Source: a virus
Taxonomy: Duplodnaviria; Heunggongvirae; Uroviricota; Caudoviricetes
Virus record (IMG/VR): IMGVR_UViG_2744054872_000003
Span: 1 to 40,380 of that record
Length of the DNA stretch: 40,380 nt
Reading direction: 5' to 3' (one strand)
Below the pieces are notes generated by a model. The model worked only from the letters and a program-made list of their open reading frames with translations. It was not told where the DNA came from and searched no databases. A program made the translations under genes and the position numbers. This document shows, piece by piece, positions 8,216-34,111 of this stretch; the stretch's first letter is position 1; each line of letters begins with the position of its first letter.

Positions 8216-8377
8216 ATGAAAAAAGCATTTGCTGCACTGTTCGTTTTGTTGTCTCTGGTAGCTTCAACTCAGGCCTTTGCCGGTCGTTGTCAGCACGACA
8301 GCGACACTGCTGCTGACGGCTCACGCTGCGGTGGGCGTTCTGCGGATTCCCGCCCAGGCGGCGGTGGCATTCGTTAA
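8216..8377 (+). CDS. Small secreted Gly/Cys-containing peptide (53 aa precursor)
   Basis: Signal peptide MKKAFAALFVLLSLVASTQAFA then a 31-aa Gly/Ser/Asp-rich tail with two Cys; weak RBS. Confidence 0.3.
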   Translation: MKKAFAALFVLLSLVASTQAFAGRCQHDSDTAADGSRCGGRSADSRPGGGGIR

Positions 8378-11375: not shown

Positions 11376-11380
11376 TTAAT

Positions 11381-13183: not shown

Positions 13184-15693
13184 TGCGGAATATCTCCGGA
13201 GAATCTCTGACGCTTCTGTGTCAGATTAAGAACAACGGGAGAACCATCATCTTTCAGCAGATAACCAGTACCAAGTTTCACCAGGTACTGACTATCGCCG
13301 TAACTTTGCAAACCATACTGACCAGGCGGTGTTTTTATCCCTGAGCCGACAACTTGTTCATTCCAAGCCTGATTAACCTGCTTATCGAATTGCTCTGCAG
13401 ACATTCCCCACGGCAAAAGGACATTCCCCATTCCGTTATAGTCATGCACGCCACCTGTAGCTACGTTAACAGCCTGTTTCCAGATATCATTGTCAATTTC
13501 GCCTGATACCACGCCTTTTTTCGCCATCACACCAGCGTAATAGTCCTTTGCGATCTCGTATGCCATTGATGCCCCCTGAGCATCACCAGCAAATGCATCC
13601 TTCACCATGTCAGAAAACTCAAGGCGAAGATCAGCATCTTTAGGCATCGGAATACCTTTCGCATCATCAGTACCTTTACGAGCCGCCGCGCCAGCAAGAA
13701 TTGTCTGCGCAGCGGTTTCAGGTGACACGGAAACATCCGGATTAAACCAGTTTTTTTCTGCCAAAATACCACCAGGTTTATCCATCAGTATCCCGGCAAC
13801 GGCAGCAGATGGAGCGTTGGCACTGATCTGCTGTAGTGCTGACATATACACCTGCCCACCACCAGTGCTTTGCCTGATGGTATCGAGATATGCTGCCTGT
13901 TGGGAAACGGGCGCATCACGAAAGAAAACACCGATCTGATTGGCCTCGTCTTTGGAAAAGAACGTCAGTGGAGTGCCATATGACTTGGCAAGGTCACTGA
14001 CCTGAGCGGCACGCAAGGCAACGCTCTGTCCAAAGTTATCCTTATTGCTCATGTCGATAGGCTTTGCCTGTCCGGCGGCAAGAGAGAACTGCACAGGATC
14101 CGATTGCCGCTGCTTTATCACCTGATTTGCAGCCGAAACAACGTTGTCATAAAGAGCTGCGCGTGCCGCATACCCCTCCCCTGTCTCACCAGTATCCGGG
14201 CGTAATTGCTCAACATATGCTGTAATGCTGCTTGTCGGCATGTTGCGGAAAGAGCCTATATACTGTCCGGCGATCTGCGTATTTCTGAACTCGGTATATC
14301 GCAGGTTTCCTTCTCTGACGCCATAAGCTGCAATAAAATCAGCCTCACCAGGTGGATTAGGAAATTCAACGCCACGCATATACGCAGCCGTCGCATCGCG
14401 AACCTGGCTGTCAATCATCGTTTTATATTCAGCCTGCTGCTGCCGACGCAGTTGATCCGCCTGTCGCATAAAACTTGCCTGCGCCTCAGGAGAGGCCGCA
14501 TCGAATGCTGCATTACCGGTATAGCGTTTGATGTTGGTTGGAATTGTTGATAAACCAAGTGCTGCACTGACACCAGCAGTTAACTGCTGATCACTGTATG
14601 GCTGGCTACCGTTCTCATGATGGATAATTGCTGCACAAAGCGCCTTCAGGGTATCAGGATTTGATGCATCGAGAGGCTCATCAGCAGAAACGCCAAGTTG
14701 TTCGCACACTGCTTTGATATACGACATAGTGTCATTTTTATCAGTAGGCGGTGCCCAGCGATTAATTATCTCGCTGACGGTATCAATACCCTGCCTCTGA
14801 TACGACATCAGGTTCCGCCCTAATGCACGAATCCCGTGTTCAGGTGTTTCGAATTTAGCAAATCGACCATCATCACCGGTCTGGCCTACCCACGGATTAG
14901 TTTTGCTGTATTCGAGATTTCCTGGGTTATTGTTGCGTATGCCACGGGCACGCTCGGAAGAGTCACTATCTGCTACAGCACGGCGAGCTCCAGCAGCAGT
15001 ATCACTTAACTCGCCATTACTTTGGATGAATGCGGTCGCATTGTTTGCCGACCAGTGGGACAATGCGGCATCAGCAACCTTCTCTTTAAACTCGATTTTC
15101 TTGGCCTGGATTTGCTCGTCGCTCCAGCCATGCGCAATGCCGTAATCCTCAATTTGCTGGAAAGTTTGCTTATTAGCCAATACGTATGCGGCGTTGTCGC
15201 CATACAATGCTGCGGCATTTTTACCATTGTTCAGCAGCGTCGCCTGAAACTGGCCTTCTTCGTAGGCATTTATTTGCCCTATCTCGTGTCGCCCGGCCTG
15301 CGTAGTGAACTGAATGCGCTGCTGCTGCGCCTGCTGCATGAAAGCATTACGAGCCTGTTCATCAGGCAGCGACATAGCCAGTTTCTCGACCTGGGCATCA
15401 AACTGCTGCGTATACTCCTGACCTTTTCCAATAGCATTTTTCCCTTTCAGGTTAAGCAAACCTGTTTCAGGGTTATTCAGCAGATCGCTGCTTATCTGGC
15501 TTAAGCTAAGAGAAGCATCCTGAGCCATAGCAACATTCGCACGCTGTTTTGCCTGCGCAATAATACCTGCATATTGCTCTGCAACATCGCCAAGTACATC
15601 ACCGACATTTGGTGTCTGAAACGATGAGAATCCCTGCGTCGAAATCCCTCTGCTCTGAACCTGACGGCCCGATGTTGTTGGTACAACTGGCAT
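13180..15693 (-). CDS. Internal virion / ejection protein with a possible enzymatic central domain
   Basis: 837 aa; central block GIRNNNPGNLEY...WVGQTGDDGRFAKFETPEHGIRAL looks like a conserved globular domain, possibly cell-wall-directed; translationally coupled to the next gene. Confidence 0.5.
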   Translation of the reverse strand: MPVVPTTSGRQVQSRGISTQGFSSFQTPNVGDVLGDVAEQYAGIIAQAKQRANVAMAQDASLSLSQISSDLLNNPETGLLNLKGKNAIGKGQEYTQQFDAQVEKLAMSLPDEQARNAFMQQAQQQRIQFTTQAGRHEIGQINAYEEGQFQATLLNNGKNAAALYGDNAAYVLANKQTFQQIEDYGIAHGWSDEQIQAKKIEFKEKVADAALSHWSANNATAFIQSNGELSDTAAGARRAVADSDSSERARGIRNNNPGNLEYSKTNPWVGQTGDDGRFAKFETPEHGIRALGRNLMSYQRQGIDTVSEIINRWAPPTDKNDTMSYIKAVCEQLGVSADEPLDASNPDTLKALCAAIIHHENGSQPYSDQQLTAGVSAALGLSTIPTNIKRYTGNAAFDAASPEAQASFMRQADQLRRQQQAEYKTMIDSQVRDATAAYMRGVEFPNPPGEADFIAAYGVREGNLRYTEFRNTQIAGQYIGSFRNMPTSSITAYVEQLRPDTGETGEGYAARAALYDNVVSAANQVIKQRQSDPVQFSLAAGQAKPIDMSNKDNFGQSVALRAAQVSDLAKSYGTPLTFFSKDEANQIGVFFRDAPVSQQAAYLDTIRQSTGGGQVYMSALQQISANAPSAAVAGILMDKPGGILAEKNWFNPDVSVSPETAAQTILAGAAARKGTDDAKGIPMPKDADLRLEFSDMVKDAFAGDAQGASMAYEIAKDYYAGVMAKKGVVSGEIDNDIWKQAVNVATGGVHDYNGMGNVLLPWGMSAEQFDKQVNQAWNEQVVGSGIKTPPGQYGLQSYGDSQYLVKLGTGYLLKDDGSPVVLNLTQKRQRFSGDIPQ

Positions 15694-15705
15694 CTTATTA
15701 TCCCC

Positions 15706-16245
15706 TTATCGACCGGTTGGAGTGCCAACAGCAGCAGAAATCGGCGCAGCCTTCTGAGAGAACGGGCTCCACGTTCCTCCGCCCATCTGGTATGCACCGT
15801 ATGCTTTTAGTGGTGCCGTTAACAAAGTGCTGGTCATCGATGATTTAGCAGCCGACTGAGCAGCAGCCCCCTGTGCCTGAGCATTCATTCCCTGAACCTG
15901 ATACCCATATGCCTCACGCTGAGCATTATTCACTGTCGTTAACGCATCAAGAGTGCCGAACTGAGCATTATCCGCAAAAACGTCAAGAGCTGTTCCGCTA
16001 CTTAATTCCGCACCGGTAGCCCCCATAGTAGCCGCCGCAGTGCCTGAGCGTTGACGCATTTCACGACGACGCTGATCCGCTTCAATATTCCCACGATTGA
16101 TTGAATCCTGTGCCTGAGCTTCAGCAATTTCAGCATTCCGATCAGCTACGGCTGACTGGTATTTTGCCTGCTTGCTCTGGCTGTACATTGATGCGGCTGT
16201 GGATGCCACTGTGACTGCAACCAAAGCGATGGCTGGGTTACACAT
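15706..16245 (-). CDS. Internal virion protein (T7 gp14-like position)
   Basis: N-terminal hydrophobic helix then Ala/Gln-rich sequence; sits between the putative nozzle protein and the core proteins. Confidence 0.45.
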   Translation of the reverse strand: MCNPAIALVAVTVASTAASMYSQSKQAKYQSAVADRNAEIAEAQAQDSINRGNIEADQRRREMRQRSGTAAATMGATGAELSSGTALDVFADNAQFGTLDALTTVNNAQREAYGYQVQGMNAQAQGAAAQSAAKSSMTSTLLTAPLKAYGAYQMGGGTWSPFSQKAAPISAAVGTPTGR

Positions 16246-16709
16246 TATTTTCTCTCCATGTGAAATCTGTGGAAATTAAGACCAAGAGCACCATAAGGCG
16301 CGGATTCTTCAAGCCTGAATCCAAGCCAGTGCAGCCATGCTTTGGCAACATGGTTTCGCTCGTCGACGTAGTTTTCCAGGCGCGGATAAACTGCCAGCAT
16401 CTGCTGCAATACAGGGCGGCAGTGGCGAAGAAATGTCTTCTGATATTTTTCAATACGGCTGGTTCCGACCAGCCATGGCGTACCATTGCCACCGATCATT
16501 GACGCCGGAGATACGCCAAACATGGTTACCAGTTCTCCGTTCGCAAATCCTGACCAGGCCATAGTCGCAGTGCGAAGACCAACACGCAGCGCATCTTCGG
16601 TAGTCATCAGCGATACCGCATACAGTTCGTCAATATCAGCCTGACGAACATCCGGCAAAATCATCTGAAGATGATCTTCGGTAGCGGGAATAATTCGAAT
16701 ATCGATCAT
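16245..16709 (-). CDS. Hypothetical virion assembly protein
   Basis: 154 aa; ATGA overlaps with both neighbours. Confidence 0.4.
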   Translation of the reverse strand: MIDIRIIPATEDHLQMILPDVRQADIDELYAVSLMTTEDALRVGLRTATMAWSGFANGELVTMFGVSPASMIGGNGTPWLVGTSRIEKYQKTFLRHCRPVLQQMLAVYPRLENYVDERNHVAKAWLHWLGFRLEESAPYGALGLNFHRFHMERK

Positions 16710-19180
16710 CAGAATCCCCCAACAGTAAGGCGAGGAATAACGGCAAGAACAGACAGCGGCAACGGGTCAAGCTGACGGATTCTTACACGTCCGTTTTTGC
16801 CCCAGTTACTGTCCAGTTTCACCTCAACTTTTCCGGTAGCGTCATCAACAGGATCATCGTAGAACTCGAATTCACGCTGTGGATATTCGTACCATTTACC
16901 GCCTGGCGTAGTCGCCCAGATGCCGCGACTGGCATTCACAACCAGAGTAACGGACGGAATCACCTGTTTTTTGTCCAGCAGCGTTTCCTGTCCGTTAATG
17001 TTGATATCCAGTGTTTCGAATTCAGCAGTTATTGGCAGGCCGATGTGCACTACAGCCCCCGGAGATTCCAGAGTGACGGCACCTCCGGAAACAACTTTCT
17101 GTGGTTCCACGTTCGCATCAGAGAGAATGTTTACGGTCTGGCCTTCAAGATGAGACAGGCCTCCAAATGTCCGGCGCGCCATCTGCCAGTTCGTGGTGGC
17201 CACATTCCTGAGGGATGGCGGGACGTTCCTGTTAGCACGAACCACTACAGCGGTATTGCTGGTTACAGAAATAATGTCGCAACGTAATTCTTTTGACACT
17301 TCATCGCCAGTATCAGGATCAGTTCCGGTATAAGGGAACTGTAGTTGAGCACCGACATCACTACTGGTGAAGTACGCACCACCAGAAACACTGATTGTAT
17401 ATTCCGCGCGGTAATTCCATTCGCCAGAACCACCAGTGATGATCATCGTTCTGTCAGACGTATTTCTTCCATCATAGCTAAGGCCAGAATCAACAAAGAA
17501 AGCATCTTCATCGCTGGTAAATAAACGGCTGGACAGTCGCTCGATGTATCTCACTGTTTGCCCGTTAACAGTTCGGTTAACGACGAAATACACCGCATCT
17601 TCATTGCCTTCGCTGATACTGCATGTACTTTCATATTTTCCGGTACTGGACTGTGGTGCCCATGCAAAAACCTGTTGATCACGCAGATAGGTCATCACCA
17701 GTAATTTGCCGTCATCACGAATGCAGAAGGCGCTGGAGTAAGGGACAATAGAGAAGCACCAGTCAACAATGCTGTGCTTCTGAAAAAGATGATTGGCAAG
17801 GATGGTCAGGTCGTTCCCCTGATAGCCGTCAACATCGAATGAATAGGCCAGATCACGGACAACACTGCCTTTCTCCTGGACGAACAGAGCAATATTCGCT
17901 ACGGCAATTGGTGGGACATTGCTCGAGCCATTTGATCCCTGAGAGCTGAATGCAAATGATGATGGGGTAAGCACTTTGTTCTGGTCGCCAGTGATGACGT
18001 ACTCACCTCCGGAAGTCAGCGCCACCAGCGAACCAACATCAATCAGGTGACGGATCTCATTAACCTGACGCCCGGCATAGGTGTAGATAATTCTGTCGTC
18101 ATCCTGCGTAGGATTGCTTTTGCCAAAATCCTTATAATCCCCAGTACGGCTGGCCCAGATAGTCTGAGGGAACGCAGTCGATGCAGCGAAGTAAAGACGT
18201 TGTTGATAATAAACAACAGCGCCAGGATAACCATTAACACTGTTCCAGGCATATTTAGCCCATTTATAGCTGGCATTATCCTCGCCAACTACCTGCGAAG
18301 GGATATAGGAAATCACCTCGGCAGTTGCAGTAGTTCCATTTGCAGCAGTGATACGGGCAATGCCAAAACCACTGTGCAGATATTCCCACTCAATGCCGGT
18401 ATCATCATCTCCGGATCCGCCCCAGCCATCCCATGATGTGCCTTCTGTATGCGAAGGGCGCAAAGTGCCTGTTTTACCTGCTGTAACAGCGCGATAGTAG
18501 TTACTGTCTGCACGGCGAACATCGTCAATCGACGTACTCTTACTGGTTTCCCATACCGGCACTGAATCCACTGCAGGCTGTTCCAGATAGAACAATTTGC
18601 CTACCTGCTCCGCGCCAAAAATAGAGGCGCTTGCCGTTAACGTAATTGTCCCGGTGCTGGCGCTGGCATAAACCGTCACTGACTCGTCAATATTGATATC
18701 TTCAAATGGCCCGTTCTTCGTTACCACATCAACCAGTTGCCAGTTGTCATGCGCATAGCGGCGCAACTCTTTCGGCGGGTATGCCGGGTGAACCAGCGTA
18801 AGCACGTCGGCGCTTTGCGTGAATTTAATTCGGAACAGATCGGCTTCAGTATATGGCGTGGCAATTTCATAAATAACATTGCTGCTGTTCAGCACCAACG
18901 CACCATCTTTGATAACGCGCATGTACTGGTGTCCGAACTCCAGAGCATAGGTCTGAACCGTCGAGAACTGGAACGGGATCAGACGGCATTTCCGATTTGG
19001 GTATTTTGCGGCACCGACAAAACGCGTACCAGGTCGATTCTCAACGCCGCCATACTGCCGCACGATAAAATTATCGCACTTGCGCAATGCCACCTGGTAC
19101 TTCGCCATGTCGATACGTCCGTACAACGACGGTCCAATCTCACCACCAGCAAAGCTGGGCTGGATCCAACTGATAGCCAT
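16709..19180 (-). CDS. Tail tubular protein B-like (nozzle)
   Basis: 823 aa; N-terminus MAISWIQPSFAGGEIGPSLYGRID resembles the start of T7 gp12-like proteins; follows a gp11-like gene. Confidence 0.55.
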   Translation of the reverse strand: MAISWIQPSFAGGEIGPSLYGRIDMAKYQVALRKCDNFIVRQYGGVENRPGTRFVGAAKYPNRKCRLIPFQFSTVQTYALEFGHQYMRVIKDGALVLNSSNVIYEIATPYTEADLFRIKFTQSADVLTLVHPAYPPKELRRYAHDNWQLVDVVTKNGPFEDINIDESVTVYASASTGTITLTASASIFGAEQVGKLFYLEQPAVDSVPVWETSKSTSIDDVRRADSNYYRAVTAGKTGTLRPSHTEGTSWDGWGGSGDDDTGIEWEYLHSGFGIARITAANGTTATAEVISYIPSQVVGEDNASYKWAKYAWNSVNGYPGAVVYYQQRLYFAASTAFPQTIWASRTGDYKDFGKSNPTQDDDRIIYTYAGRQVNEIRHLIDVGSLVALTSGGEYVITGDQNKVLTPSSFAFSSQGSNGSSNVPPIAVANIALFVQEKGSVVRDLAYSFDVDGYQGNDLTILANHLFQKHSIVDWCFSIVPYSSAFCIRDDGKLLVMTYLRDQQVFAWAPQSSTGKYESTCSISEGNEDAVYFVVNRTVNGQTVRYIERLSSRLFTSDEDAFFVDSGLSYDGRNTSDRTMIITGGSGEWNYRAEYTISVSGGAYFTSSDVGAQLQFPYTGTDPDTGDEVSKELRCDIISVTSNTAVVVRANRNVPPSLRNVATTNWQMARRTFGGLSHLEGQTVNILSDANVEPQKVVSGGAVTLESPGAVVHIGLPITAEFETLDININGQETLLDKKQVIPSVTLVVNASRGIWATTPGGKWYEYPQREFEFYDDPVDDATGKVEVKLDSNWGKNGRVRIRQLDPLPLSVLAVIPRLTVGGF

Positions 19181-20504: not shown

Positions 20505-20942
20505 TTAACCAGTTACTTTTGAGCGGATCGGATACGGCGTATTGGCATCAACATCAAGACTGATACCAGCAGTGAATTCGCCAGCCGTTAGTGGGCCAGT
20601 TGCGACGGAGTAGTTAACACGCAGATATCGCTGAACACCGGCAGGCACCTTTGCAGAAACAACTCGTTTACCTGCTGTCAGGGCGGTCTTTGCCAGTGCG
20701 CCACTATCATAAATAGTGGTCCATGAGCTGTTATTCTCACTCGTCTGCAACTGGATGTTTACAGTTGCATCACCGCTTGCCGCGGCGGCTGTGTTAACCA
20801 GCGCCCAAAACTCAAGCGGGTAACCCACGCCGATATCACGACGTTTTCCGTCAATTGGACCGAGATCGATTACGTCAGTAGAAGCCGCGGTATTCGTAAC
20901 CGCCTGAGCTTCGGAGAACATCAACAGTTTGTCGGTGATCAT
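20505..20942 (-). CDS. Capsid decoration / cement-like protein
   Basis: About 145 aa, immediately after the major capsid gene; N-terminus MITDKLLMFSEAQAV resembles small capsid accessory proteins. Confidence 0.45.
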   Translation of the reverse strand: MITDKLLMFSEAQAVTNTAASTDVIDLGPIDGKRRDIGVGYPLEFWALVNTAAAASGDATVNIQLQTSENNSSWTTIYDSGALAKTALTAGKRVVSAKVPAGVQRYLRVNYSVATGPLTAGEFTAGISLDVDANTPYPIRSKVTG

Positions 20943-20958
20943 CTTCTTTCTCCATTAG

Positions 20959-20978
20959 TGGGTCTGTTACGACCCACA
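20959..20978 (-). terminator. Hairpin immediately after the major capsid gene
   Basis: GTGGGTC-GTAACA-GACCCAC in the 51-bp gap after the capsid stop; no clear U-tract. Confidence 0.35.
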
Positions 20979-20993
20979 GGTTAATAACAGGCG

Positions 20994-21986
20994 TTACACC
21001 ACGCGGGCTTCTGTTTCCAGAAGCGCATCAGTTTCACGGATTGGTACACCACGGAATGACGTCCACCACTCGCCTTCTGTCTCTTTTACGCTGATCGCCA
21101 GAGATGTTTTCTCCAGAGATTGCAGATCAAGAGCCTGGCCTACAGTGCGGTTCATGTAGAACACCGGGCGACCCATGCCACGGTTTGGAATGCGATGCAG
21201 TGCTTTAACCATCAACTTCGCAATATTTGCGGCAGAGGAAGGTTCTGAAAGATTGCTGACATCGATGTTTGCAATGCGAACAACATAACGCCAGTCACGC
21301 AGAGCAAGTCCGTTATCCCATTTGTAATGGGTGCGATAGCCTTCGTACTTGCCGCCATTAGCATCTTCCAGTGTCACCTGGCCTTTATCTTCCATCTGGA
21401 TGCCAGCCTTCTGCCCTTTCGGGAAGATGCCATGCACGGTGTTTTCGCCCCACACCACTAACCAGATTGAGGTGTTATCTGTACCCGTGCCACCAGCATC
21501 AATGATGTTCTGAGCATTACCCGCAGACAGGCTGGAATAGCGGGAGGACAGTCCCATAAACTGCTGAGGGTTAACGCTGGAATCACCATAAAACAGCGTC
21601 TGCGCCATCTGCTGATTCATCGCTTCAATAAATGCGCGGTCTTCAGACAGGCGGAATTCGGCGGTATTGCCGTTCAGATCAGCCAGTGACTTATCGACTT
21701 CAGCATAGGTTTCCAGCATGCCAACGGAATCGGTTACCTGCACTGTGGTTGATTTGCTTGGCTGTACGCCATAGTTCAGCAAACGCCAGGTAGCTGAAGG
21801 TAAACCAGAACGAATGGTGGTTCGGTGTCCGGTAGGAAGGTTCCCTTCGACAAAAGGCATATCCTGAAGGATCGGGTTAGTTTGACCGAGAAGCTCGATA
21901 ATCTTATCGACTTTCCCGTTTGGATCGACGCGCTTACCCCAGTCAGCCAGCGTTAGCGCAGTTAAGCCTTTAACAGCCATTGTCAT
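20994..21986 (-). CDS. Major capsid protein
   Basis: 330 aa, between scaffold and decoration genes; size and position match podovirus major capsid proteins. Confidence 0.7.
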   Translation of the reverse strand: MTMAVKGLTALTLADWGKRVDPNGKVDKIIELLGQTNPILQDMPFVEGNLPTGHRTTIRSGLPSATWRLLNYGVQPSKSTTVQVTDSVGMLETYAEVDKSLADLNGNTAEFRLSEDRAFIEAMNQQMAQTLFYGDSSVNPQQFMGLSSRYSSLSAGNAQNIIDAGGTGTDNTSIWLVVWGENTVHGIFPKGQKAGIQMEDKGQVTLEDANGGKYEGYRTHYKWDNGLALRDWRYVVRIANIDVSNLSEPSSAANIAKLMVKALHRIPNRGMGRPVFYMNRTVGQALDLQSLEKTSLAISVKETEGEWWTSFRGVPIRETDALLETEARVV

Positions 21987-21994
21987 TTCCTCTC

Positions 21995-22696
21995 TTATTT
22001 GCCATAGAGCACTTCGGCCGCACTACGCTGGCCTTCATTACCACCGGTGACCATGCCATCTTCAGACATCGCCTTTCCGATTTTCACGAACGTTTTGACC
22101 AGATCAGGGTGATTACCCAGCCCGGTGGTGTTCAGATATTCTTTGAGTTCAGGTGTCCCGAACTGGTCAAGCGCACGCTGTGCGACGCTAAGGTTAGAAA
22201 TCAACTTGTCGCCACCGATTTCTTTGTCAGCTTTTACATCCGCAGCCCACTGCTCGGTTGTTTTCTGCCAGGCTTCTGCCTGGCGCTGCTGAACACCTGC
22301 CAGAATCTTCGGATAAGCATCAACCAGCTTTTGCGCTTGCTCGTTGGTCAGGTTAAGTTCTCGCGCCACCGGCTCGAATTCCTTCAACGCTTCTGTATCC
22401 AGATCTACGCCTTCGGCAGCCTGAAACTCGTACTTCTCAGGCGCACCCTCTGGTTTATCGCCGCCCTTTTTTTCATCCTGCTTATCGTTTTCAGGCTTTT
22501 TGTCATCAGCAGGTTTATCGCCATCAGCAACAGGTTGTGGCTTATCACCTTCCTGTTGTGATGGATCACCAACTGGAGCAGGGGTATCACCTGCAGGCGC
22601 TGACGGTTCTGACGCAGCCGGAGCTGCTCCGCCATCAACTGGTTGCTCATTGCAAAGACGGCGATACAGCAAACGCTCAAATAAATTCATGATCAC
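21995..22696 (-). CDS. Scaffolding protein
   Basis: Highly acidic, Pro/Ala/Asp/Lys-rich low-complexity N-terminal half, helical C-terminal half; directly upstream of the capsid gene. Confidence 0.6.
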   Translation of the reverse strand: MIMNLFERLLYRRLCNEQPVDGGAAPAASEPSAPAGDTPAPVGDPSQQEGDKPQPVADGDKPADDKKPENDKQDEKKGGDKPEGAPEKYEFQAAEGVDLDTEALKEFEPVARELNLTNEQAQKLVDAYPKILAGVQQRQAEAWQKTTEQWAADVKADKEIGGDKLISNLSVAQRALDQFGTPELKEYLNTTGLGNHPDLVKTFVKIGKAMSEDGMVTGGNEGQRSAAEVLYGK

Positions 22697-22989
22697 TCCT
22701 GTTCACTGGCCTCTTTGGCCATCTTCAAATACTGTTCAGGGCAATGCGCCATAACGCGCTGAAACAGTTCAAGCGCCAGATTGCGTTGCCCCTCATTAAA
22801 TGCCATTGCCATAGCGTCCATCGGTGAGATAGCGGAAAACACACGGCCTTTCTCCAGCACAGACCAGACAACGCGACGCCCCTGTTCACTGCTCATGACA
22901 AAGCGAATGTCATCAATTTCACGCTGCTCCATGTCACGTTGCTTACGGGCGTTTTCTTCTTTCAGTTGATCGTCTTCGTAATCTGTCAT
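22693..22989 (-). CDS. Hypothetical small acidic protein between portal and scaffold
   Basis: 98 aa; ATGA coupled to both neighbours. Confidence 0.45.
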   Translation of the reverse strand: MTDYEDDQLKEENARKQRDMEQREIDDIRFVMSSEQGRRVVWSVLEKGRVFSAISPMDAMAMAFNEGQRNLALELFQRVMAHCPEQYLKMAKEASEQE

Positions 22990-24665
22990 TGTGATTGCCC
23001 ACCCTGACCACTAACTGCATTCGCCATAGCTGACAAAACACTCGGATCCGAAGTTTTAGCTTCGCTTAGCGTCTTGGCGCCCTGTGCCGCCGCCATCCCC
23101 ATCGCCATCATTTGTTGCTGCTGTTGCTGCTGTGCCCGTTGCTGGCGAGCCTGCTCAACCTGTTCCTGCGGAACAATGACGGTTGGAGACACTCCGGACA
23201 TATCAGCGAATGCATCGATCGCCTGATCAACGTTGAGTTTGTCGAGAGCTTCTGGTTTCGCTTGCGCAAGTTGACCAATGAAGTTGACCGTAGACGCCAG
23301 ACTGGACAGGCCGATAGACTTCTGCGCCTGAGCCATGACGGAAATGTATTCGACCTTCAGGGGCATACCTTCCATCGCGTCAGGCGGTGGCGGCAGCATG
23401 TTTTTACGCACCATCATCGAGAAAGCGCGGTCAATGAGAGGATTAAGACATTCGTCGTTCAGACGCTCCAGAACCGGCCCCAACATCAGAAGTTTTTCTT
23501 CTTTCATTTCGATCACCGCTTCAACAGGCATCGAGCGGGTATTGATGTTCTGCAACATCATGAACAGATCGACAAAGTAGGCGCTGTTAATGATTTGACG
23601 AGTGTCCTGAATGTCTGCCACCAAATCTGCTGTACTGGGGTTAACCAGATAAGCAGGCCTGAAGCCATCCTGACCAGTAATCTGATCGATATACGTGATG
23701 TCGCCAGGAAGAAGGGAGGCGCGCTGATTCTTGAGGGAAGTCGGAGCAACCATCGGCGGATTGGTGGCTTTATCAATCAACTGCGACTTGCGCTTCTGGA
23801 GAAGCTGCAATGCCTTAACAGGTCCAAGCGCCAGCATACCCGGGCATGATGATCCATAAACATCTTCGCCGTTAACTTCCCAGCGCGGAGCCATAATTGG
23901 AAACTCATCGAATCCGGACTCACGCAACAACTTGTCGTTATCGCCACCAACCTCGTAATAAACCGATTTGAATGGCTTGTTCTTGCTATCCAGCTTCGAT
24001 GTATCGCGGTCAATGTTCGGGTAAACCGAATGCATCACTTCAATCCACTTCTCGTAGGTGCCGCTTTCCCACATGCTTTTTACGGATTCGCTGACGTTAT
24101 TTAGCCCGAACTCCTGAACAAGCTGACGAACAGTCATAGAGAACTTGCGAAAACAGGTGTCCACACTGCCACGAGGTGAGTTAGCCAGGTAGTAACTGCC
24201 TATCGGGAATGGCATTGTGCGAATGATGTCCTCGTCATCCTCCAGCACCGCCATTGCACCAGTGCTGTATGTGCCGAGGCTTCCGTATAACTGCGGAAGA
24301 GACTGGTAGAGATTCGACTTATTGAACATATCGTTCATGCGGTTCTGCACCGCCTCAAGCCACAACTTAACAGGGCCATAATCCATCATTTCAGGATCTG
24401 TCGTAGCCAGGCGAAACCACGGACGCGCGGGGCTTGTGATGCCTGACATCATGCCGCTGGCGAGAGTGCGCGCCGCCATAGTCCCGGTCGAATCAATAAT
24501 GCGTGTATTGCGTCGATCGTTACGGTTGACCTCAGAAGTCAGAAAGCGGGAACCACGCGGGTTGATGTAATCACTCAACTCGCGCCAGTGCGGCTCGAAC
24601 GACTGACGCTCGCTTTCAAGTTGTGCGAACTGTTTGTTCAATCGCTCTTTAGTTGTTTCCGCCAT
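22986..24665 (-). CDS. Portal (head-to-tail connector) protein
   Basis: 559 aa with poly-Gln acidic C-terminal tail; position between terminase and scaffold; size matches T7-type portals. Confidence 0.75.
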   Translation of the reverse strand: MAETTKERLNKQFAQLESERQSFEPHWRELSDYINPRGSRFLTSEVNRNDRRNTRIIDSTGTMAARTLASGMMSGITSPARPWFRLATTDPEMMDYGPVKLWLEAVQNRMNDMFNKSNLYQSLPQLYGSLGTYSTGAMAVLEDDEDIIRTMPFPIGSYYLANSPRGSVDTCFRKFSMTVRQLVQEFGLNNVSESVKSMWESGTYEKWIEVMHSVYPNIDRDTSKLDSKNKPFKSVYYEVGGDNDKLLRESGFDEFPIMAPRWEVNGEDVYGSSCPGMLALGPVKALQLLQKRKSQLIDKATNPPMVAPTSLKNQRASLLPGDITYIDQITGQDGFRPAYLVNPSTADLVADIQDTRQIINSAYFVDLFMMLQNINTRSMPVEAVIEMKEEKLLMLGPVLERLNDECLNPLIDRAFSMMVRKNMLPPPPDAMEGMPLKVEYISVMAQAQKSIGLSSLASTVNFIGQLAQAKPEALDKLNVDQAIDAFADMSGVSPTVIVPQEQVEQARQQRAQQQQQQQMMAMGMAAAQGAKTLSEAKTSDPSVLSAMANAVSGQGGQSQ

Positions 24666-24679
24666 TTCAATGACTCCGG

Positions 24680-24886
24680 TTACTGACCAAGCAGCGTTTT
24701 ACCGCTGGTATTAGCGGTTGATGTGTCGCCCTGAGAACCGGTAAGCAGCGTAGAACTACGACCAGCAGCAGCGCGACGGCGACGGGTTTCTTCGTCGCGG
24801 GCATCAACAACGGCGGCATCCTGCTCCTGTGGTGCTGCCTGAACTTCTGGTGTTGCAGGCACTGATGGTGAGCTACCCATGCACAT
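24680..24886 (-). CDS. Small hypothetical protein upstream of the portal gene
   Basis: 68-aa charged protein; GGAG RBS; chosen over the overlapping 24667..24906 frame, which has implausible composition. Confidence 0.3.
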   Translation of the reverse strand: MCMGSSPSVPATPEVQAAPQEQDAAVVDARDEETRRRRAAAGRSSTLLTGSQGDTSTANTSGKTLLGQ

Positions 24887-24954
24887 ATCAATGACTCCGT
24901 ACGCAATTAAATTATTACCAATTTAACCACATGTGATTTATTTATCGTAGATAC

Positions 24955-24991
24955 TTGACATTTAACGCACTAATTATTACCTTTCAGGTAA
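24955..24991 (+). promoter_or_regulatory. Candidate promoter (TTGACA-N17-TACCTT) with overlapping operator TTACC-TTTCA-GGTAA at 24977..24991
   Basis: Consensus -35; -10 lies inside the operator half-site; reads toward the tRNA gene. Confidence 0.45.
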
Positions 24992-25313
24992 GCAAAGAGT
25001 TCATTCCGGTTATTAACCTGACTGGCTTGTCGTTAAATTGAACAGGTGGGGTGAGCTTTTATTTTGAGCAGTACGGTGTATGGCACATGCGCCGATAGCG
25101 GTCTGGATACGTTTAAGGGGCACCCTCCCTTGCTCGGGCAAACGAACCAGGTAGCCGGAATGTGCAAGTCGAGCGGTTTTATTCCGCGCACGGGGATTCA
25201 CCATCCCGGCGATTCGGTGTGACACCTCGGAAGAGACGAGGGTGCAACGATGAGAGCATTTATGGAGCCGCGACAAAGTGTGGTGCCTTAACAGGCTAAG
25301 TGCTCTCAGCGTT

Positions 25314-25390
25314 GTGGCATTAGCTCAGTTGGACAGAGCAACCGCCTTCTAAGCGGTTGGTCGCAGGTTCGAATCCTGCATGCCGCGCCA
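25314..25390 (+). tRNA. tRNA-Arg, anticodon TCT (reads AGA)
   Basis: Hand-folded cloverleaf: 7-bp acceptor stem GTGGCAT/ATGCCGC (one G-U), D-arm GCTC...GAGC, anticodon stem ACCGC/GCGGT with loop CTTCTAA, T-arm GCAGG-TTCGAAT-CCTGC, discriminator G, encoded CCA. Confidence 0.85.
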
Positions 25391-25553
25391 GAATCACGCC
25401 TAAGGACCGTGATGCCAGAAGTTCCAGGGGCTTGGCGGTGATGGTTTCCCTTGAAGGACTATCACAGCCCTTTTTACAGCAGGACGCCATTGCGATGACT
25501 TCATGCTGTAAACCCGTACAGCCACGGAAGGCATAACTCATTGCTTCCAGTTC

Positions 25554-25577
25554 GCCCGGTTCGCCGGGCATTTTTTT
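25554..25577 (+). terminator. Rho-independent terminator after the tRNA region
   Basis: GCCCGG-TTCG-CCGGGC tetraloop hairpin followed by T7. Confidence 0.7.
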
Positions 25578-25588
25578 AAGGTGAGATT

Positions 25589-25927
25589 ATGAACGACCAG
25601 CAAATCGAAAAAGAAATCGTTGAGAAAGGCAAAACCGCCCCGCGCGTTACGCCAGACCATATCGAAAGCATTATTCTTGCGGAAACGTACTTCACTGCTG
25701 CTGATGGAGCTATTGCAACTGGCGATGACTATCACGACAGTTTGGCTCTGCTGACATTTTGTGTATTGACTCTACAAAATGGCTTCACCGTCACCGGAGA
25801 GAGCGCCTGTGCAAGCCCGGAAAACTTTGATGCAGAAATTGGTCGGAAGATTGCCAGGCAGAATGCTGTAAACAAAATATGGATGCTTGAAGGTTACTTG
25901 CTGAAGCAGAAGTTAAGCGAGCAATAA
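25589..25927 (+). CDS. Gp49/Sf6 gp66-like small phage protein
   Basis: 112 aa; AAGGTGA RBS; overall sequence resembles the small Gp49-like family often found next to terminase genes. Confidence 0.5.
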   Translation: MNDQQIEKEIVEKGKTAPRVTPDHIESIILAETYFTAADGAIATGDDYHDSLALLTFCVLTLQNGFTVTGESACASPENFDAEIGRKIARQNAVNKIWMLEGYLLKQKLSEQ

Positions 25928-25931
25928 CACC

Positions 25932-25943
25932 GTGACATGTCAC
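25932..25943. repeat. 12-bp palindrome GTGACATGTCAC, copy 2
   Basis: Five bp after the Gp49-like stop and just before the 25948..25975 terminator. Confidence 0.6.
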
Positions 25944-25947
25944 AAAC

Positions 25948-25975
25948 AGCCAGCCTATGAGCTGGCTTTGTTTTA
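25948..25975 (+). terminator. Intrinsic terminator between the Gp49-like gene and the convergent terminase gene
   Basis: CCAGC-CTATGA-GCTGG hairpin followed by CTTTGTTTTA. Confidence 0.5.
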
Positions 25976-26017
25976 TCCTCACCAGAGGATATCAACGACA
26001 TTATCCCCACCAGCGGA

Positions 26018-27493
26018 TTAAGCATAGGGATCGTAATCTGTAATGGCCTTGCCTTGCTGGTTCTGCTGACCTGGAATTCGCAGACGCTTCGACACAGGGA
26101 AAGCAAACGTCAGCAATAGCGCATCGCCTTTACCCGGCGAACGCCCAAGACGCTCTTTGATATCTTCCTTCGGTTCGATAACGATTTTACCGTCCACACG
26201 AACTTTGTACTCTGCCGCCGACAGGTCGTCTGCAGTTTCCTGGTCATCCAGCATGCCGCCCAGCCTCAGCCATGTCTTACATGAGTTGAACATCTCCCCA
26301 CGCTTGTTAAGCATCTGCGGGTCAGTGGACGCACCGCCGAACGGAACAAGTTGCCATGTACGTCCCCAGCCATCACCGATTGACTTCAAACCGGTTCCGT
26401 AACCGAAGTCGATGAACACCGCGTCAGCCTGGTACTGGTCTTCAAAGTCAGCGATACGCTTCGCCATAATCAGATCGTCGGTGGTCTTGTTGCCGGTCCA
26501 CAGCACCTTACTGTGCAGCCCCTGCCGCAGGTATATCGCCGCGTCATCAACACCGGAGTATGCAGGGTCAACGCCGATTATCACCGGAGCATGTGCCACC
26601 TGCGCAGCAGTTACCACCCGTTTCATTGCCTCGTCAGTAAGACCGGTAGGGATAAACTGCAATTCAGATGCATCAGGGAATATGCCGCGCACACGGATTT
26701 TAACGAAGTCGCTGTCTTCCCCGTAGTCATCAACCCATTTCTGCAACTGCTGTTTGTTGGTGCCTTCCACCGTCCGGCTGTCAATCTGCGCAGTTTTCCA
26801 GCGGTGTTTATATTTGCGGAAACATTCGCGGAAACGTCCGGTATTACGCGTCGGGTTTCCGAACGCCACCCAGATAATCTCAGTGTCTTCGTCCGTCAGC
26901 GCACCCTCTGCTACCTCCCACACCAGATCGGCAATGTTGGATGCTTCGTCGAAAACCACGATGATGCGTTTGCGCTCGTTGTGTAGTCCGGCGAATGCCT
27001 CAGTGTTGTGCTCAGACCAGGGGATTGCGTCAGCTCGCCACCGCTTGTCGTGCCCAGGATCATTGCTGTACATCGCGGTAGCGGTACAGGTAAACCAGTC
27101 TTTCGTGATGGCAAGGTTCGACCACTTGATAATTTCCGGCCAGGTCTTCGTTCGTAGCTGGTTGTCGGTGTTGGCGGTCACCACGACCTTACAATCCTCG
27201 CAAGTGGACATGCCCCAGTTGATCAGCATTGAGATGAATGCGGATTTACCAATACCGTGACCAGAAGCGCGTGCCAGCATAAGCGGCTGATATCGCGTCT
27301 CTGGATTCTGCAGGTGATCACGTATCTCTCGGAACGCATCAGCCTGCCACTGACGTGGACCTGTGGCATGTGCTAATTCAGTCCCCTCTTCCCCCCACGG
27401 GAACGCATAGAGGGCATAGCCAAGCGGATCGTGAGTGAACCCTGCAATATCTTCGATTAACTGCTCTTCAGGAGATAACGCTGCATCTGTCAC
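26018..27493 (-). CDS. Terminase large subunit
   Basis: Walker A-like ASGHGIGKS near the N-terminus, acidic nuclease-type C-terminal half, 491 aa; overlaps the small-subunit gene by ATGA. Confidence 0.85.
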   Translation of the reverse strand: MTDAALSPEEQLIEDIAGFTHDPLGYALYAFPWGEEGTELAHATGPRQWQADAFREIRDHLQNPETRYQPLMLARASGHGIGKSAFISMLINWGMSTCEDCKVVVTANTDNQLRTKTWPEIIKWSNLAITKDWFTCTATAMYSNDPGHDKRWRADAIPWSEHNTEAFAGLHNERKRIIVVFDEASNIADLVWEVAEGALTDEDTEIIWVAFGNPTRNTGRFRECFRKYKHRWKTAQIDSRTVEGTNKQQLQKWVDDYGEDSDFVKIRVRGIFPDASELQFIPTGLTDEAMKRVVTAAQVAHAPVIIGVDPAYSGVDDAAIYLRQGLHSKVLWTGNKTTDDLIMAKRIADFEDQYQADAVFIDFGYGTGLKSIGDGWGRTWQLVPFGGASTDPQMLNKRGEMFNSCKTWLRLGGMLDDQETADDLSAAEYKVRVDGKIVIEPKEDIKERLGRSPGKGDALLLTFAFPVSKRLRIPGQQNQQGKAITDYDPYA

Positions 27494-28083
27494 TGATTAC
27501 CATCCTGACGTTCTTTGAGTCGCTTCCTGGCTGCCGCTATGCGATCAGCAATTGTCACATTCACATTAACATCCAGGCGTTCTTTGAATGCGTTGACGTC
27601 GACGTGCTTACCAATCAGTTCTAGGTTCTTCACCTTGTCAGGCCATTTAATTTTTTTGAGGATTGTCTCTATCGAATCCTCGTTCATGTTCATGATGGTC
27701 GATGACAGATCAAAGCCACTAAGCGTAGTGCGCCAGATTTTCGGCCACTCACGGATTGGTTTAAGGCTCCCATCGTCGTTGAGGATGTCGATCACGTCCA
27801 TCTGGTCGATCTCCACCAGGCGCATGAGAACGTAATCAGCACTGACGCGCATTCGTTTGTTGCGCTCCTCCATCAACTCGGCAATCCGTTTTTGAATGCG
27901 TTCATCGCGCATCATGACACTGGCTTTAACTGCCGCTGTATTTGGTGAGAATCCTGCGTTAATCGCTGCCTGAGTCTGGTTTTCAGGCGTTTTGATGTAT
28001 GACTGGCAATAAGCCTCCTGCATTGCTGTTAGTGGCTTAAATTGCGTTGATTTGCGTTTATAGGTTTTAGGTTCAGCAGGCAT
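27490..28083 (-). CDS. Terminase small subunit
   Basis: TAMQEAYCQSYIKTPENQTQAAINAGFS fits the terminase small-subunit HTH pattern; start taken at ATG 28083 with GGTGG RBS, because the ORF-track N-terminal extension translates a repeat region. Confidence 0.7.
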   Translation of the reverse strand: MPAEPKTYKRKSTQFKPLTAMQEAYCQSYIKTPENQTQAAINAGFSPNTAAVKASVMMRDERIQKRIAELMEERNKRMRVSADYVLMRLVEIDQMDVIDILNDDGSLKPIREWPKIWRTTLSGFDLSSTIMNMNEDSIETILKKIKWPDKVKNLELIGKHVDVNAFKERLDVNVNVTIADRIAAARKRLKERQDGNQ

Positions 28084-28085
28084 AA

Positions 28086-28118
28086 TAACCACCGTGGTAA
28101 TAGTTACCGTTGTGGTAA
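28086..28118. promoter_or_regulatory. Two tandem operator-like sites upstream of the terminase operon
   Basis: TAACC-ACCGT-GGTAA at 28086..28100 (one mismatch) and TTACC-GTTGT-GGTAA at 28104..28118 (perfect), giving the appearance of a GTGGTAATAGT direct repeat. Confidence 0.5.
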
Positions 28119-28136
28119 TAGTACCATGCAAAATAA

Positions 28137-28155
28137 AGCCGCCATAGTTGGCGGC
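28137..28155 (-). terminator. Intrinsic terminator between the nin-like region and the terminase genes
   Basis: GCCGCCA-ACTAT-GGCGGC hairpin followed on the minus strand by TTTATTTT. Confidence 0.55.
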
Positions 28156-28196
28156 AGTATTCAAAACCCATCAAATTCATCATGCATAATCTACTC

Positions 28197-31817: not shown

Positions 31818-32603
31818 TTACTTGATAAATCCTGCCGCCTTTCCCCGCCTGTATTCCTCCATCAGCCACTGCGCCGGTGTTATTCCCCCAAGGGTGGCGG
31901 CGTTAGGCATGCACCCGAAACTTCGCCCTGGTGGATGGTAAACGTCTCTCCCTGTGTCCGGAGGTGTACTCATGGGCTCTCGCTTTGCCTGTATGCTGAT
32001 CACCGGATCGGGTATCTGCTGTCCGGAAGCTACCTTTTTCGCCCAATCATCGAGCAGCCTGCGCGCGTGTTTCTCAACCTCAATCTCGCTAAGCTGGCGC
32101 TGATACATTGCACGGCGGGTATCACATACGACCCAGTACATAACCGGATGTCGCCACGGGAATCTTTCGGGACCACCAGGATATAAACTTTTTTCCTTGC
32201 TGTACCGGTGAAACTCCGCCATCACATCGTCAATGGTGACGCCAAGAACCATCTTGCTGTCTTTACACCACTTGATGAATTGCCCTGGCGACGGCCAGAA
32301 CGGAGACTCACTGGCGCGGGCGTGGCGCATACCAGCAGAAACCTGTTCACGGGTTCGGATCCCCCCTTCGGCAAACGCAGCAATCCACTGCTGTTTTGCA
32401 GCAACTTCCTGCTCTGGCGTCTTCAGGTTGGTTACCACTGCCGCCGGAAACAGTTGTTTCAGCTGTTTGAAAAGGGCATCAACAAGCCTCTCTGCTGACA
32501 TGTTCACCACGTTGTCATTGTTGGTGTACTGATGCTCATAACCTGACATGCGAGAAAGGGCTTCTCCGTCACGGTTTTGTATCGCGGTAAAAACGTTGTT
32601 CAC
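31818..32603 (-). CDS. Replication protein P-like (helicase loader)
   Basis: Central block LFPAAVVTNLKTPEQEVAAKQQWIAAFAEGGIRTREQVSAGMRHARASESPFWPSPGQFIKWCKD closely parallels the equivalent block of lambda P as recalled; start taken at GTG 32603 with GGAGGA RBS, overlapping the O stop. Confidence 0.7.
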   Translation of the reverse strand: MNNVFTAIQNRDGEALSRMSGYEHQYTNNDNVVNMSAERLVDALFKQLKQLFPAAVVTNLKTPEQEVAAKQQWIAAFAEGGIRTREQVSAGMRHARASESPFWPSPGQFIKWCKDSKMVLGVTIDDVMAEFHRYSKEKSLYPGGPERFPWRHPVMYWVVCDTRRAMYQRQLSEIEVEKHARRLLDDWAKKVASGQQIPDPVISIQAKREPMSTPPDTGRDVYHPPGRSFGCMPNAATLGGITPAQWLMEEYRRGKAAGFIK

Positions 32604-33415
32604 AAGAAATCCTCCCATGCTTCAGGGCTGTTCCAGTGCGGAACGTTGTTATCAGGTAATGTTAATTGCTTCTGTCTGCTAATCTGCAGCCTCCTTGCCA
32701 GCTTCTGCTCCCACTGTGCCTGATGGTATGCCTTACCCTCAGCCATCCAGTAAATTCTGAACTCTGCAAGTTCCTGTGCCGTTGGCAGACTGTCCAGGTA
32801 GATCCCCTGCAATGAGCTTTTCCGAAGAAAGTCATCTGATGGTTGCCATTGTTCATGCATGACAAATTTGCCTAATTGCCCTGGCCCACCAGGAGGAACA
32901 AAGTTATTCATCACGGCGTTGTTTGCGCCGGGGTCATGAGACACAGAATCCCCGTTTTTTGTCCTGCTCTCCCTCTCTTGGTTAAATGACTGGTTATATG
33001 ACTGGTTCTGGATCCCGTTTTTGGGATCATTCAACATCCCGTTTTTGGGATCATTCAACATCCCGTTTTTGGGTATATTCCCGTTTTCGGTAAAATTACC
33101 GTTTTCGGGTTCATTACCCCCTTCCCGGTTGCCTTTAATGTTCCCGTTTTTGGTTATATTAAGAGAGAAAACCCGCACTCTTTTTGTCGCTCCCTTTCTC
33201 TCTCCGGTATCTGAAATAAGCCCCATTTTCATGAGCGATATAAGCCCGGCCTGTACGGTTTTTTTATTCAGGCAAGTGTCTTTAACGAGGCGTTCTATGC
33301 TGGGGTAGCAGAGGTTATATTCATCGGCTCTGTCAGCCATCGAGAGCAGTATGAGCTTTAATGATGAGCTACCTGGATCTGTCTCCCAGGCCCAATCTGT
33401 TGCATGTCTGCTCAT
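32600..33415 (-). CDS. Replication initiator (O-like) with origin iterons inside the gene
   Basis: N-terminal HTH-like domain, internal Asn/Gly/Pro repeat region encoded by the iterons, helical C-terminal domain; immediately upstream of the P-like gene. Confidence 0.6.
   Translation of the reverse strand: MSRHATDWAWETDPGSSSLKLILLSMADRADEYNLCYPSIERLVKDTCLNKKTVQAGLISLMKMGLISDTGERKGATKRVRVFSLNITKNGNIKGNREGGNEPENGNFTENGNIPKNGMLNDPKNGMLNDPKNGIQNQSYNQSFNQERESRTKNGDSVSHDPGANNAVMNNFVPPGGPGQLGKFVMHEQWQPSDDFLRKSSLQGIYLDSLPTAQELAEFRIYWMAEGKAYHQAQWEQKLARRLQISRQKQLTLPDNNVPHWNSPEAWEDFL
33012..33160. repeat. Iteron array (putative replication origin)
   Basis: Two perfect 24-bp tandem copies of TCCCGTTTTTGGGATCATTCAACA at 33012..33059, then at least four degenerate copies with core CCCGTTTT(T)GG. 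Confidence 0.7.
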
Positions 33416-34048: not shown

Positions 34049-34111
34049 TCACCCATAAGGTAACAAAAATCAAGGATAGTTACCTATGAGGTGCATTTAC
34101 CTGTTGGGTAA
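34049..34111. promoter_or_regulatory. Tripartite operator region with divergent promoters (OR-like)
   Basis: Three motif copies: TCACC-CATAA-GGTAA (34049..34063), TTACC-TATGA-GGTGC (34080..34094), TTACC-TGTTG-GGTAA (34097..34111); the minus-strand TTGTTA-N17-TATTAT promoter for the cro-like gene overlaps the first. Confidence 0.65.

Follow-up and report, generated by a model that had tools for sequence, protein, structure and literature searches.

In the 40,380-nt stretch of DNA analysed here (positions 1 to 40,380 of the IMG/VR virus record IMGVR_UViG_2744054872_000003, hereafter the window), which is the genome of an epsilon15/phiV10-like (Uetakevirus) prophage, a plus-strand unit sits between two minus-strand blocks, with the portal gene and a small gp3-like gene on one side and the terminase genes on the other. 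The initial annotation of this DNA, made from the sequence alone, had described such an antisense unit between portal and terminase, and the gene map confirms it. Positions 24955-25975 can be read as a small early transcription unit of the prophage, in which a repressor-controlled promoter would be followed by a 245-nt structured RNA, a tRNA-Arg(UCU), terminators, a gp49-family gene and a final terminator. The leader of this unit (25072-25316, plus strand) is the subject of the present work: it forms an independent RNA module of about 245 nt, made of a core of about 170 nt followed by a long helix, P7. Over 721 bases around it, identity to phiV10, TL-2011b and other Escherichia coli podophages amounts to 97-98%, and a chromosomal site of E. 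coli (NZ_CP033635.1) matches the leader at 100% identity.

This leader is a selected structured RNA, encoded on the plus strand. In a MAFFT alignment of 32 non-redundant cores, made blind to structure, a four-helix model (P1, P2, P4 and P6) leaves 96.2% of the cells paired, as compared with 30-48% when the partners are slid by one to three columns. Changes on both sides are observed at 10 of the 23 pairs (70 cells), none of 500 shuffles matching the observed values, and RNAalifold independently finds P2, P4 and P6. G-U pairs, found without exception at two positions and often at others, would turn into A-C mismatches if the opposite strand were read, which assigns the RNA to the plus strand of the window. 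Regarding P7, which in most members has about 18-20 bp and encloses an insert of 7-96 nt, compensatory variants are many across loci (for instance CAACGGGUAGCUCAC/GUGAGCUACUCGUUG in locus L012 and CAAUCAAAGAGCG/CGCUCUUUUUGAUUG in locus L028); the helix ends in the conserved GUUGUGG, a junction that in the window extends into the first bases of the tRNA. A covariance model of the core matches 25072-25244 of the plus strand with 140.7 bits (E = 1e-44) and gives one match in every related locus searched. Moreover, among 13 phage loci that BLAST collected independently, 12 share one 19-nt block of the core without a single difference; only a deletion remnant in epsilon15 lacks it. The folding stability of the single sequence is unremarkable (z = -1.8 on the plus and -1.5 on the minus strand); single-sequence folding is uninformative here, and it is the comparative data that argue for a real structure.

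The initial annotation had seen no credible open reading frame (ORF) in the leader, and indeed none is open across the family on either strand, the best one being open in 17 of 40 sequences, while insertions and deletions among relatives have lengths that are not multiples of three. A protein-coding reading was thus rejected, although several records annotate ORFs here. Genes for hypothetical proteins have been drawn over the RNA, on either strand, in mEp460 (mEp460_037, L002 2443-2811) and Ayreon (0037, L158 7668-7787), and GenBank records carry further ones at L011 2511-2753 and L012 2594-2845; in the absence of a conserved frame, these annotations are probably spurious.

Several other pairings were considered. 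The invariant GCACAU of the P1 loop region can pair with an equally invariant AUGUGC of the 19-nt block, as an alternative to the P1 hairpin, and covariation is silent on the choice because neither segment varies in the alignment. The long-range pairings quoted as examples in the initial annotation are distinct from the conserved helices: GGCACCCTC/GAGGGTGC (25119-25127 with 25238-25245) does occur in the minimum-free-energy fold but finds no family-wide support, and neither does a pseudoknot between the P2 interior and the segment after P6, the best-helix statistic being 5.56 against 5.49 in a partner-swap control. The conserved YUCCYUG motif of the P2 interior likewise shows no covariation with P6, and both the helix and the pseudoknot were rejected. 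In CGGAAT/ATTCCG, an invariant block is matched with a variable region, and by eye no conserved counterpart is seen in mEp460 and only a bulged one in P1. A hairpin P5 (GGUG-UGA-CACC), also judged by eye, was rejected, being broken by the mEp460 and P1 variants and in competition with P6. Finally, the boxA-like look of the P7 3' strand is mostly a by-product of pairing, as this strand covaries away from the consensus in several loci.

Table 1. Positions, in the window, of the leader RNA, its helices and the surrounding features
Feature	Position	Strand	Basis
Portal gene	22986-24665	minus	
Small gp3-like gene	24680-24886	minus	
Putative sigma-70 promoter (-35 TTGACA, 24955-24960; 17-nt spacer; -10 TACCTT, 24978-24983)	24955-24983	+	Read from sequence
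Operator-like palindrome TTACCTTTCAGGTAA (TTACC-N5-GGTAA), overlapping the -10 and the putative start site	24977-24991		
Conserved core of the RNA family	25072-25244	+	Covariance model, covariation, RNAalifold
P1 hairpin	25074-25082/25086-25094	+	
P2 helix	25102-25106/25147-25151	+	
19-nt block GGUAGCCGGAAUGUGCAAG	25150-25168	+	Near-invariant in BLAST-collected alignment
Variable region of the core	about 25169-25191	+	
P4 helix, UCACC loop	25193-25196/25204-25207	+	
Conserved GGUGUGAC	25216-25223	+	
P6 helix, GAAGAGA loop	25225-25229/25237-25241	+	
P7 long closing helix around a 34-nt variable insert	25243-25316 (25243-25262 with 25297-25316)	+	
tRNA-Arg, anticodon UCU (TCT in DNA), reading AGA	25314-25390	+	ARAGORN; Rfam RF00005
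Weak terminator-like hairpin, then AGCCCUUUUU	25438-25475	+	Terminator scan
Strong intrinsic terminator, GCCCGG-UUCG-CCGGGC + U7	25554-25577	+	Terminator scan
112-aa protein, N4 gp49 / Sf6 gp66 family	25589-25927	+	Pfam PF13876
Final terminator of the unit, facing the terminase gene at its 3' end	25948-25975	+	Terminator scan
Large terminase subunit TerL	26018-27493	minus	
Large and small terminase subunit genes	26018-28164	minus	
TTACC-N5-GGTAA sites	3290, 6046, 6426, 7467, 24977, 28086, 28104, 31704, 31766, 33712, 34049, 34097, 34809, 34871		

Conservation of the leader in related phages, which the initial annotation had proposed to look for, is present and extends well beyond them. BLAST of 25030-25315 against phage genomes retrieves unannotated sequence of 77-83% identity in otherwise unrelated phages (P1, P7, D6 and SJ46; the lambdoid phages cdtI, mEp460, mEp390, 2H10 and Ayreon; Stx2c- and Stx2a-converting phages; Klebsiella phages), with near-invariant blocks alternating with variable segments. 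Using a 19-mer, GGTAGCCGGAATGTGCAAG, as a probe, more than 119 viral contigs were retrieved, as well as 24 loci in the GTDB set of one genome per species, 22 of them from Enterobacterales genera and two on contigs of metagenome-assembled bins. Among complete E. coli genomes, 1837 of 5426 (34%) carry the element, at up to four places per genome and with 554 of the places on plasmids, and no annotation was found beneath it in these genomes. Three loci depart from the Enterobacterales genera to which all other hosts belong, namely one deposited as Stenotrophomonas phage vB_SmeS_BUCT708 (L006) and two in bins assigned to Oscillospiraceae (L142) and Bacillota (L154, a 1.7-kb contig carrying a full 162-bit match); we suspect mis-assigned hosts or mis-binned contigs.

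Regarding prior descriptions, a search of 24600-26100 against Rfam 15 at E <= 10 matched the tRNA only, all else scoring far below the gathering threshold and nothing falling in 25040-25313. The records examined are blank over the element or carry short hypothetical ORFs, and a literature search, mostly without subscription papers, found no description of such an RNA or of its sequence strings. From the sequences compared here, it thus appears to be a previously unannotated RNA family, strongly conserved and widespread at the start of repressor-controlled early operons.

The 155 loci assembled fall into three contexts: 54 are epsilon15-like, about 79 lambdoid and 16 or 17 P1-like. At the epsilon15-like loci, the portal gene lies upstream and the terminase genes downstream, mostly on the opposite strand. 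At the lambdoid loci, every match to a cI-like repressor lies upstream on the same strand, with three repressor types down to 28% identity, and the repressor gene ends about 240 nt ahead of the 19-mer; the order is repressor gene, repressor terminator, promoter and RNA. The lambdoid element is therefore at the leader position of the early-left promoter (PL), where lambda has nutL and HK022 has putL. In P1, the RNA begins 14 nt past trnI and ends about 95 nt before ban, within the C1-controlled ban operon. All three contexts are operons of the primary repressor, with Pban and C1 in P1, PL in the lambdoid phages and the TTACC-N5-GGTAA operator in the window. In many loci a promoter is found 0-55 nt ahead of the P1 helix, and the depositors of Ayreon independently annotated one 53 nt upstream of the RNA.

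In the window, the core begins about 85 nt downstream of the operator-controlled promoter. The operator-overlapped promoter of the initial annotation is upheld as regards the palindrome over the -10, and the promoter itself remains a reading of the sequence. Its -10 agrees with the consensus at only three of six positions and falls below the threshold of a consensus scan, which for this reason did not list it; L012, a Klebsiella relative, retains this layout, and transcription would start near 24990. TTACC-N5-GGTAA occurs 14 times in the window as compared with 0.64 expected by chance, a number reached in none of 100 shuffles. The sites include a cluster in the immunity region (34049-34111), beside a helix-turn-helix repressor gene, and one directly ahead of the small terminase gene, and the epsilon15 record annotates a repressor site at the equivalent place. 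Judging from this distribution, they look like the operators of a dispersed regulon, comparable to that of C1 in P1. The operator on the unit, which had been singled out as unusual for a tRNA promoter, would thus amount to ordinary control of an early-operon promoter within a multi-operator regulon.

The same annotation had proposed that the leader is a structured RNA or regulatory element attached to a tRNA gene. Covariation sustains the structured RNA, and the framing as a tRNA leader falls, most of the loci examined having no adjacent tRNA. Indeed, an exact junction with a following tRNA-Arg(UCU) is seen in 25 of 50 epsilon15-like loci; of 16 P1-like loci, 13 have tRNA-Ile(CAU) ahead of the RNA, and among 71 lambdoid loci a tRNA or T-arm-like hairpin is nearby in only 5. 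In L012 and mEp460, a domain other than the tRNA, about 110-125 nt long, comes after the GUUGUGG junction, and past it the sequence is again homologous to the window. The presence of different domains at one junction makes the tRNA an exchangeable cargo. The alternative cargo (L002 2745-2875; L012 2683-2810), closed by a 7-bp stem, GUGGUGA...UCACCAC, may be, from its sequence, a second structured RNA; it contains the conserved hairpins GCGCA-GGCUGA-UGCGC and CCGG-AGAUCAGCA-CCGG. The 3' extensions of the RNA are modular, with at least four types. T-arm-like hairpins outside called tRNAs occur in 11 loci as compared with about 0.9 expected, an excess which hints that tRNA-type processing on the 3' side matters. 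With a 5-bp stem and a UUCGAUU or UUCAAUU loop, and not called by ARAGORN, they lie inside the RNA or just past it, in the P7 insert of L009, L010, L007 and L016 and also in L079, L102, L106, L135 and L143; they could be tRNA fragments or tRNA-like processing signals.

The tRNA-Arg(UCU) of the window, as initially proposed, is called in agreement by ARAGORN and Rfam (69.4 bits against a gathering threshold of 29 for RF00005). AGA codons, used at roughly 2 per 1000 in E. coli, reach 4.8-6.2 per 1000 codons in the phage, a level above that of the host with which the usual rare-codon rationale for this tRNA fits. The distribution of AGA codons, a check on which had been suggested for the late genes, is uneven: the large tail/injection genes (8901-19180) reach up to 13 per 1000 and one replication-region gene (32600-33415) carries 22 per 1000, while the capsid, portal and terminase genes (20505-28164) have none. 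Downstream, the motif CUUUUUACA at the weak terminator-like hairpin is common to the window, L012 and mEp460. The UUCG terminator and the Gp49-family gene that had been noted after the tRNA are both found: the terminator stops 11 nt short of the start codon of the next gene, with a ribosome-binding site directly 3', and the gene product matches Pfam PF13876 (Phage_gp49_66) with E = 1.8e-34 and 118.5 bits (threshold 27). The epsilon15 record annotates the same arrangement of terminator and gene.

In light of these contexts, the reading that we tentatively prefer, while rating it as somewhat short of probable, is that the RNA is a cis-acting leader of the put or rrn kind, which would control elongation in N-less phages by antitermination or by counteracting Rho. 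It would fold during its synthesis and act on its own polymerase, either directly or via host Nus factors. Elongation would then be sustained through a long untranslated stretch (the leader, and the tRNA or other RNA cargo) otherwise exposed to Rho, and the intrinsic terminators ahead of the first protein gene would be passed at least partly. The tRNA would be a rare-codon decoder and a swappable cargo, and not the reason for the existence of the RNA. Any effect on termination, and any binding partner, is what we infer from a strict sense-strand, promoter-proximal position in three phage types, from the lack of an N-like protein, from the terminators downstream and from an enrichment in boxA-like sequences; the extreme conservation of the unpaired bases fits binding to a conserved host machine.

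Each of these supports can be detailed. At the lambdoid loci, no N-like gene was found as the first gene downstream of the RNA, the PHROG matches being to families of unknown function, a phosphatase and ParB, and an arginine-rich N-terminus is absent from the three first downstream genes that were translated. In the Ayreon record, a Q protein is annotated but no N, and the left operon carries an annotated internal terminator. Of 53 epsilon15-like loci, 49 have terminators in the interval from the RNA to the first ORF. Of 63 lambdoid loci, 34 have a boxA-like YGCUCUUW on the sense strand downstream of the RNA, as compared with 1-3 of 63 in control windows; the only boxA-like sequence of the window is GCCCUUUUUACAG. 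In one lambdoid lineage (L091 3340-3932), a bidirectional terminator lies downstream of the RNA, along with an rrn-type boxA that is exact, GCUCUUUAACAA, and an antisense gene for a 152-aa protein of unknown function, and the genes of the left operon resume only past these elements. From the literature, the lambdoid phage LLS, with an ST64B-like early left operon, is reported to lack an N homolog and a put-like mechanism has been suggested for it (PMC12315714), and phages with mEp names belong to a collection described as Nus-dependent (PMC11893012), which by their names would include mEp460 and mEp390.

Known antitermination systems offer both likenesses and differences. The put RNA acts in cis on RNA polymerase without any phage protein (PMC9378689). 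The putL and putR RNAs of HK022 and the putL-like RNA of HK639 likewise belong to lambdoid phages without recognisable N, on the sense strand of the nascent leader past the early-left promoter, and HK639, as in this family, has a single copy restricted to the left operon. A boxA-like sequence follows put and, in many lambdoid members, the present RNA: the putL-like RNA of HK639 (L133, about 8230-8245, minus strand) runs into CAGCUCUUUGCG, and HK022 putL is followed by UGCUCAUUA, so that put-type RNA antiterminators may be coupled to boxA. Terminator suppression by the HK022-type RNA requires the zinc-binding domain of the polymerase beta-prime subunit. However, put measures about 70 nt with two stems (stem I, AGACG.../...CGUCU), whereas the core described here is about 170 nt with at least four helices in addition to P7, and put is known from lambdoid phages, whereas this family is also found in P1-like and epsilon15-like phages. 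A homolog of put was rejected: HK022 putL and the HK639 putL-like RNA resemble each other and not this RNA, the covariance model gave no match on the HK022 and HK639 loci, and BLAST gave none in HK022. The nut site of lambda (boxA and boxB, with N) and the rrn leader (boxB-boxA-boxC, with Nus factors and SuhB) share the same promoter-proximal position, and the boxA-like sequence downstream in many lambdoid members, exact in L091, may recall both; rrn operons likewise carry tRNAs within long untranslated transcripts. Unlike in lambda, a boxB/N pair is missing and the gene first downstream is not N-like, and nothing in nut or rrn leaders corresponds to the core.

Several observations weigh against an antitermination or anti-Rho leader. 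A strict scan, blind to long-loop hairpins and Rho sites, detects downstream intrinsic terminators in only 10 of the 68 lambdoid loci with enough downstream sequence, and downstream terminators were consequently rejected as a universal feature, although they are the rule at the epsilon15-like loci. Of the 34 boxA-like matches, 28 are one conserved sequence (CGCUCUUUUUACAA, mEp460-type loci) and hence non-independent. The lack of similarity to put goes along with a core about 2.5 times larger, and in P1 the RNA is mid-operon, some 95 nt before ban, with no terminator in the gap. Epsilon15 is without most of the RNA yet retains the terminator and the gene; its remnant (L003 2545-2634, 35.5 bits) consists of no more than the P1 hairpin and the beginning of P2, is annotated as an RNase III site, and borders a deletion that reaches just before the terminator preceding gp50. 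In addition, full terminator-proofing would send polymerase antisense into the terminase genes of the window, an outcome that a partial antitermination or anti-Rho role would avoid, and a free RNA released by processing would account just as well for the frequent fusions to tRNAs or tRNA-like hairpins.

Such a free RNA is the main rival, and we regard it as a serious, if rather unlikely, explanation: a stable free-standing non-coding RNA, cut from the early transcript by tRNA-processing enzymes and acting in trans. RNase P at the 5' end of the tRNA of the window, and 3' processing of trnI in P1, would release its ends, and in lambdoid phages the 5' end would be the transcription start; its target could be a host or phage protein or RNA, possibly in an anti-defence or host-takeover role. 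The compact fold, whose 5' hairpin and long closing helix on the 3' side would resist nucleases, suits such a molecule, as do the exact junction with tRNA-Arg in half of the epsilon15-like loci, the 14-nt distance from trnI in P1, the excess of T-arm-like hairpins, the acceptor-like 7-bp stem of the alternative cargo and the viability of epsilon15 without it. There is also precedent in the P4 CI RNA and the P1/P7 C4 RNA, phage regulatory RNAs processed by RNase P and cut from early leaders. However, the lambdoid members are mostly devoid of a tRNA or T-arm nearby, orientation and position with respect to promoter and operon are strictly conserved, which a gene acting in trans would not need, no terminator of its own follows the RNA and no target complementarity was identified. 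The P4 CI and P1/P7 C4 RNAs are also repressor-controlled leader RNAs linked to tRNA-type processing, but of about 70-80 nt and pairing with repeated targets in their own operon; no repeated targets were found here, and the carriers already have protein repressors. The PreS (LPR1) small RNA of lambda is likewise a phage non-coding RNA from the early left operon (bioRxiv 10.1101/2024.10.31.621285), but it is a 68-88-nt Hfq-dependent RNA ending at the terminator tL2a, deep in the operon, and is related to the present RNA neither in sequence nor in size or position. That the core might be a new kind of functional RNA altogether, either released by tRNA enzymes as a trans-acting decoy or inhibitor of a host tRNA-biology or defence system, or a new ribozyme, we consider unlikely.

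A cis-regulatory sensor, namely a riboswitch or protein-binding leader whose junction would bind a metabolite, a second messenger or a protein and whose variable 3' modules would be expression platforms, is more doubtful still. A multi-helix junction with near-invariant unpaired nucleotides in a 5'-untranslated position and the modularity of the 3' extensions are what such a sensor would display, and two mutually exclusive folds are conceivable, with YUCCYUG inside P2 complementary to the P6 3' strand and the invariant GCACAU/AUGUGC pairing rivalling the P1 hairpin. Yet no conserved terminator/antiterminator alternative was found beside the core, the P2-interior motif does not covary with P6, ban in P1 and a tRNA in the window leave no common platform, and no ligand candidate emerged. 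It is very improbable, and purely speculative, that the RNA is self-cleaving or otherwise catalytic and processes early polycistronic transcripts, for example by splitting the tRNA or RNA cargo from the mRNA: its highly conserved core with a possible pseudoknot, its location at boundaries between RNA cargo and mRNA and its failure to match any Rfam ribozyme family leave room for a new class, but it is larger than most self-cleaving ribozymes and shows no visible cleavage-site signature. Finally, the conserved element could have no function as RNA and be recently spread DNA (the boundary of a recombination module, or a site bound by a protein) or a short protein gene. Its occurrence at mosaic junctions and the hypothetical ORFs annotated across it in mEp460, Ayreon and others would suit this reading, which is largely refuted, and to which we accord hardly any weight, in view of the compensatory changes that preserve the helices, of G-U pairs tolerated on one strand only, of the lack of a conserved frame, of out-of-frame indels and of an identity pattern made of conserved blocks between variable helices.

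Many lambdoid phages, such as Stx2c- and Stx2a-converting and ST64B-like phages, lack a recognisable N. To our knowledge, the HK022-type put RNA, of which few examples are known, is the only established protein-free solution for bringing polymerase through an early left operon. A large RNA supported by covariation is now found at the position of an antiterminator in three phage lineages of differing organisation, P1-type phage-plasmids included. Should it act in cis as we tentatively propose, it would represent a new structural class performing a known kind of job; should it act in trans or as a catalyst, it would be further from anything known. Were it to prove no antiterminator, it would nonetheless rank among the commonest undescribed structured RNAs in E. 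coli.

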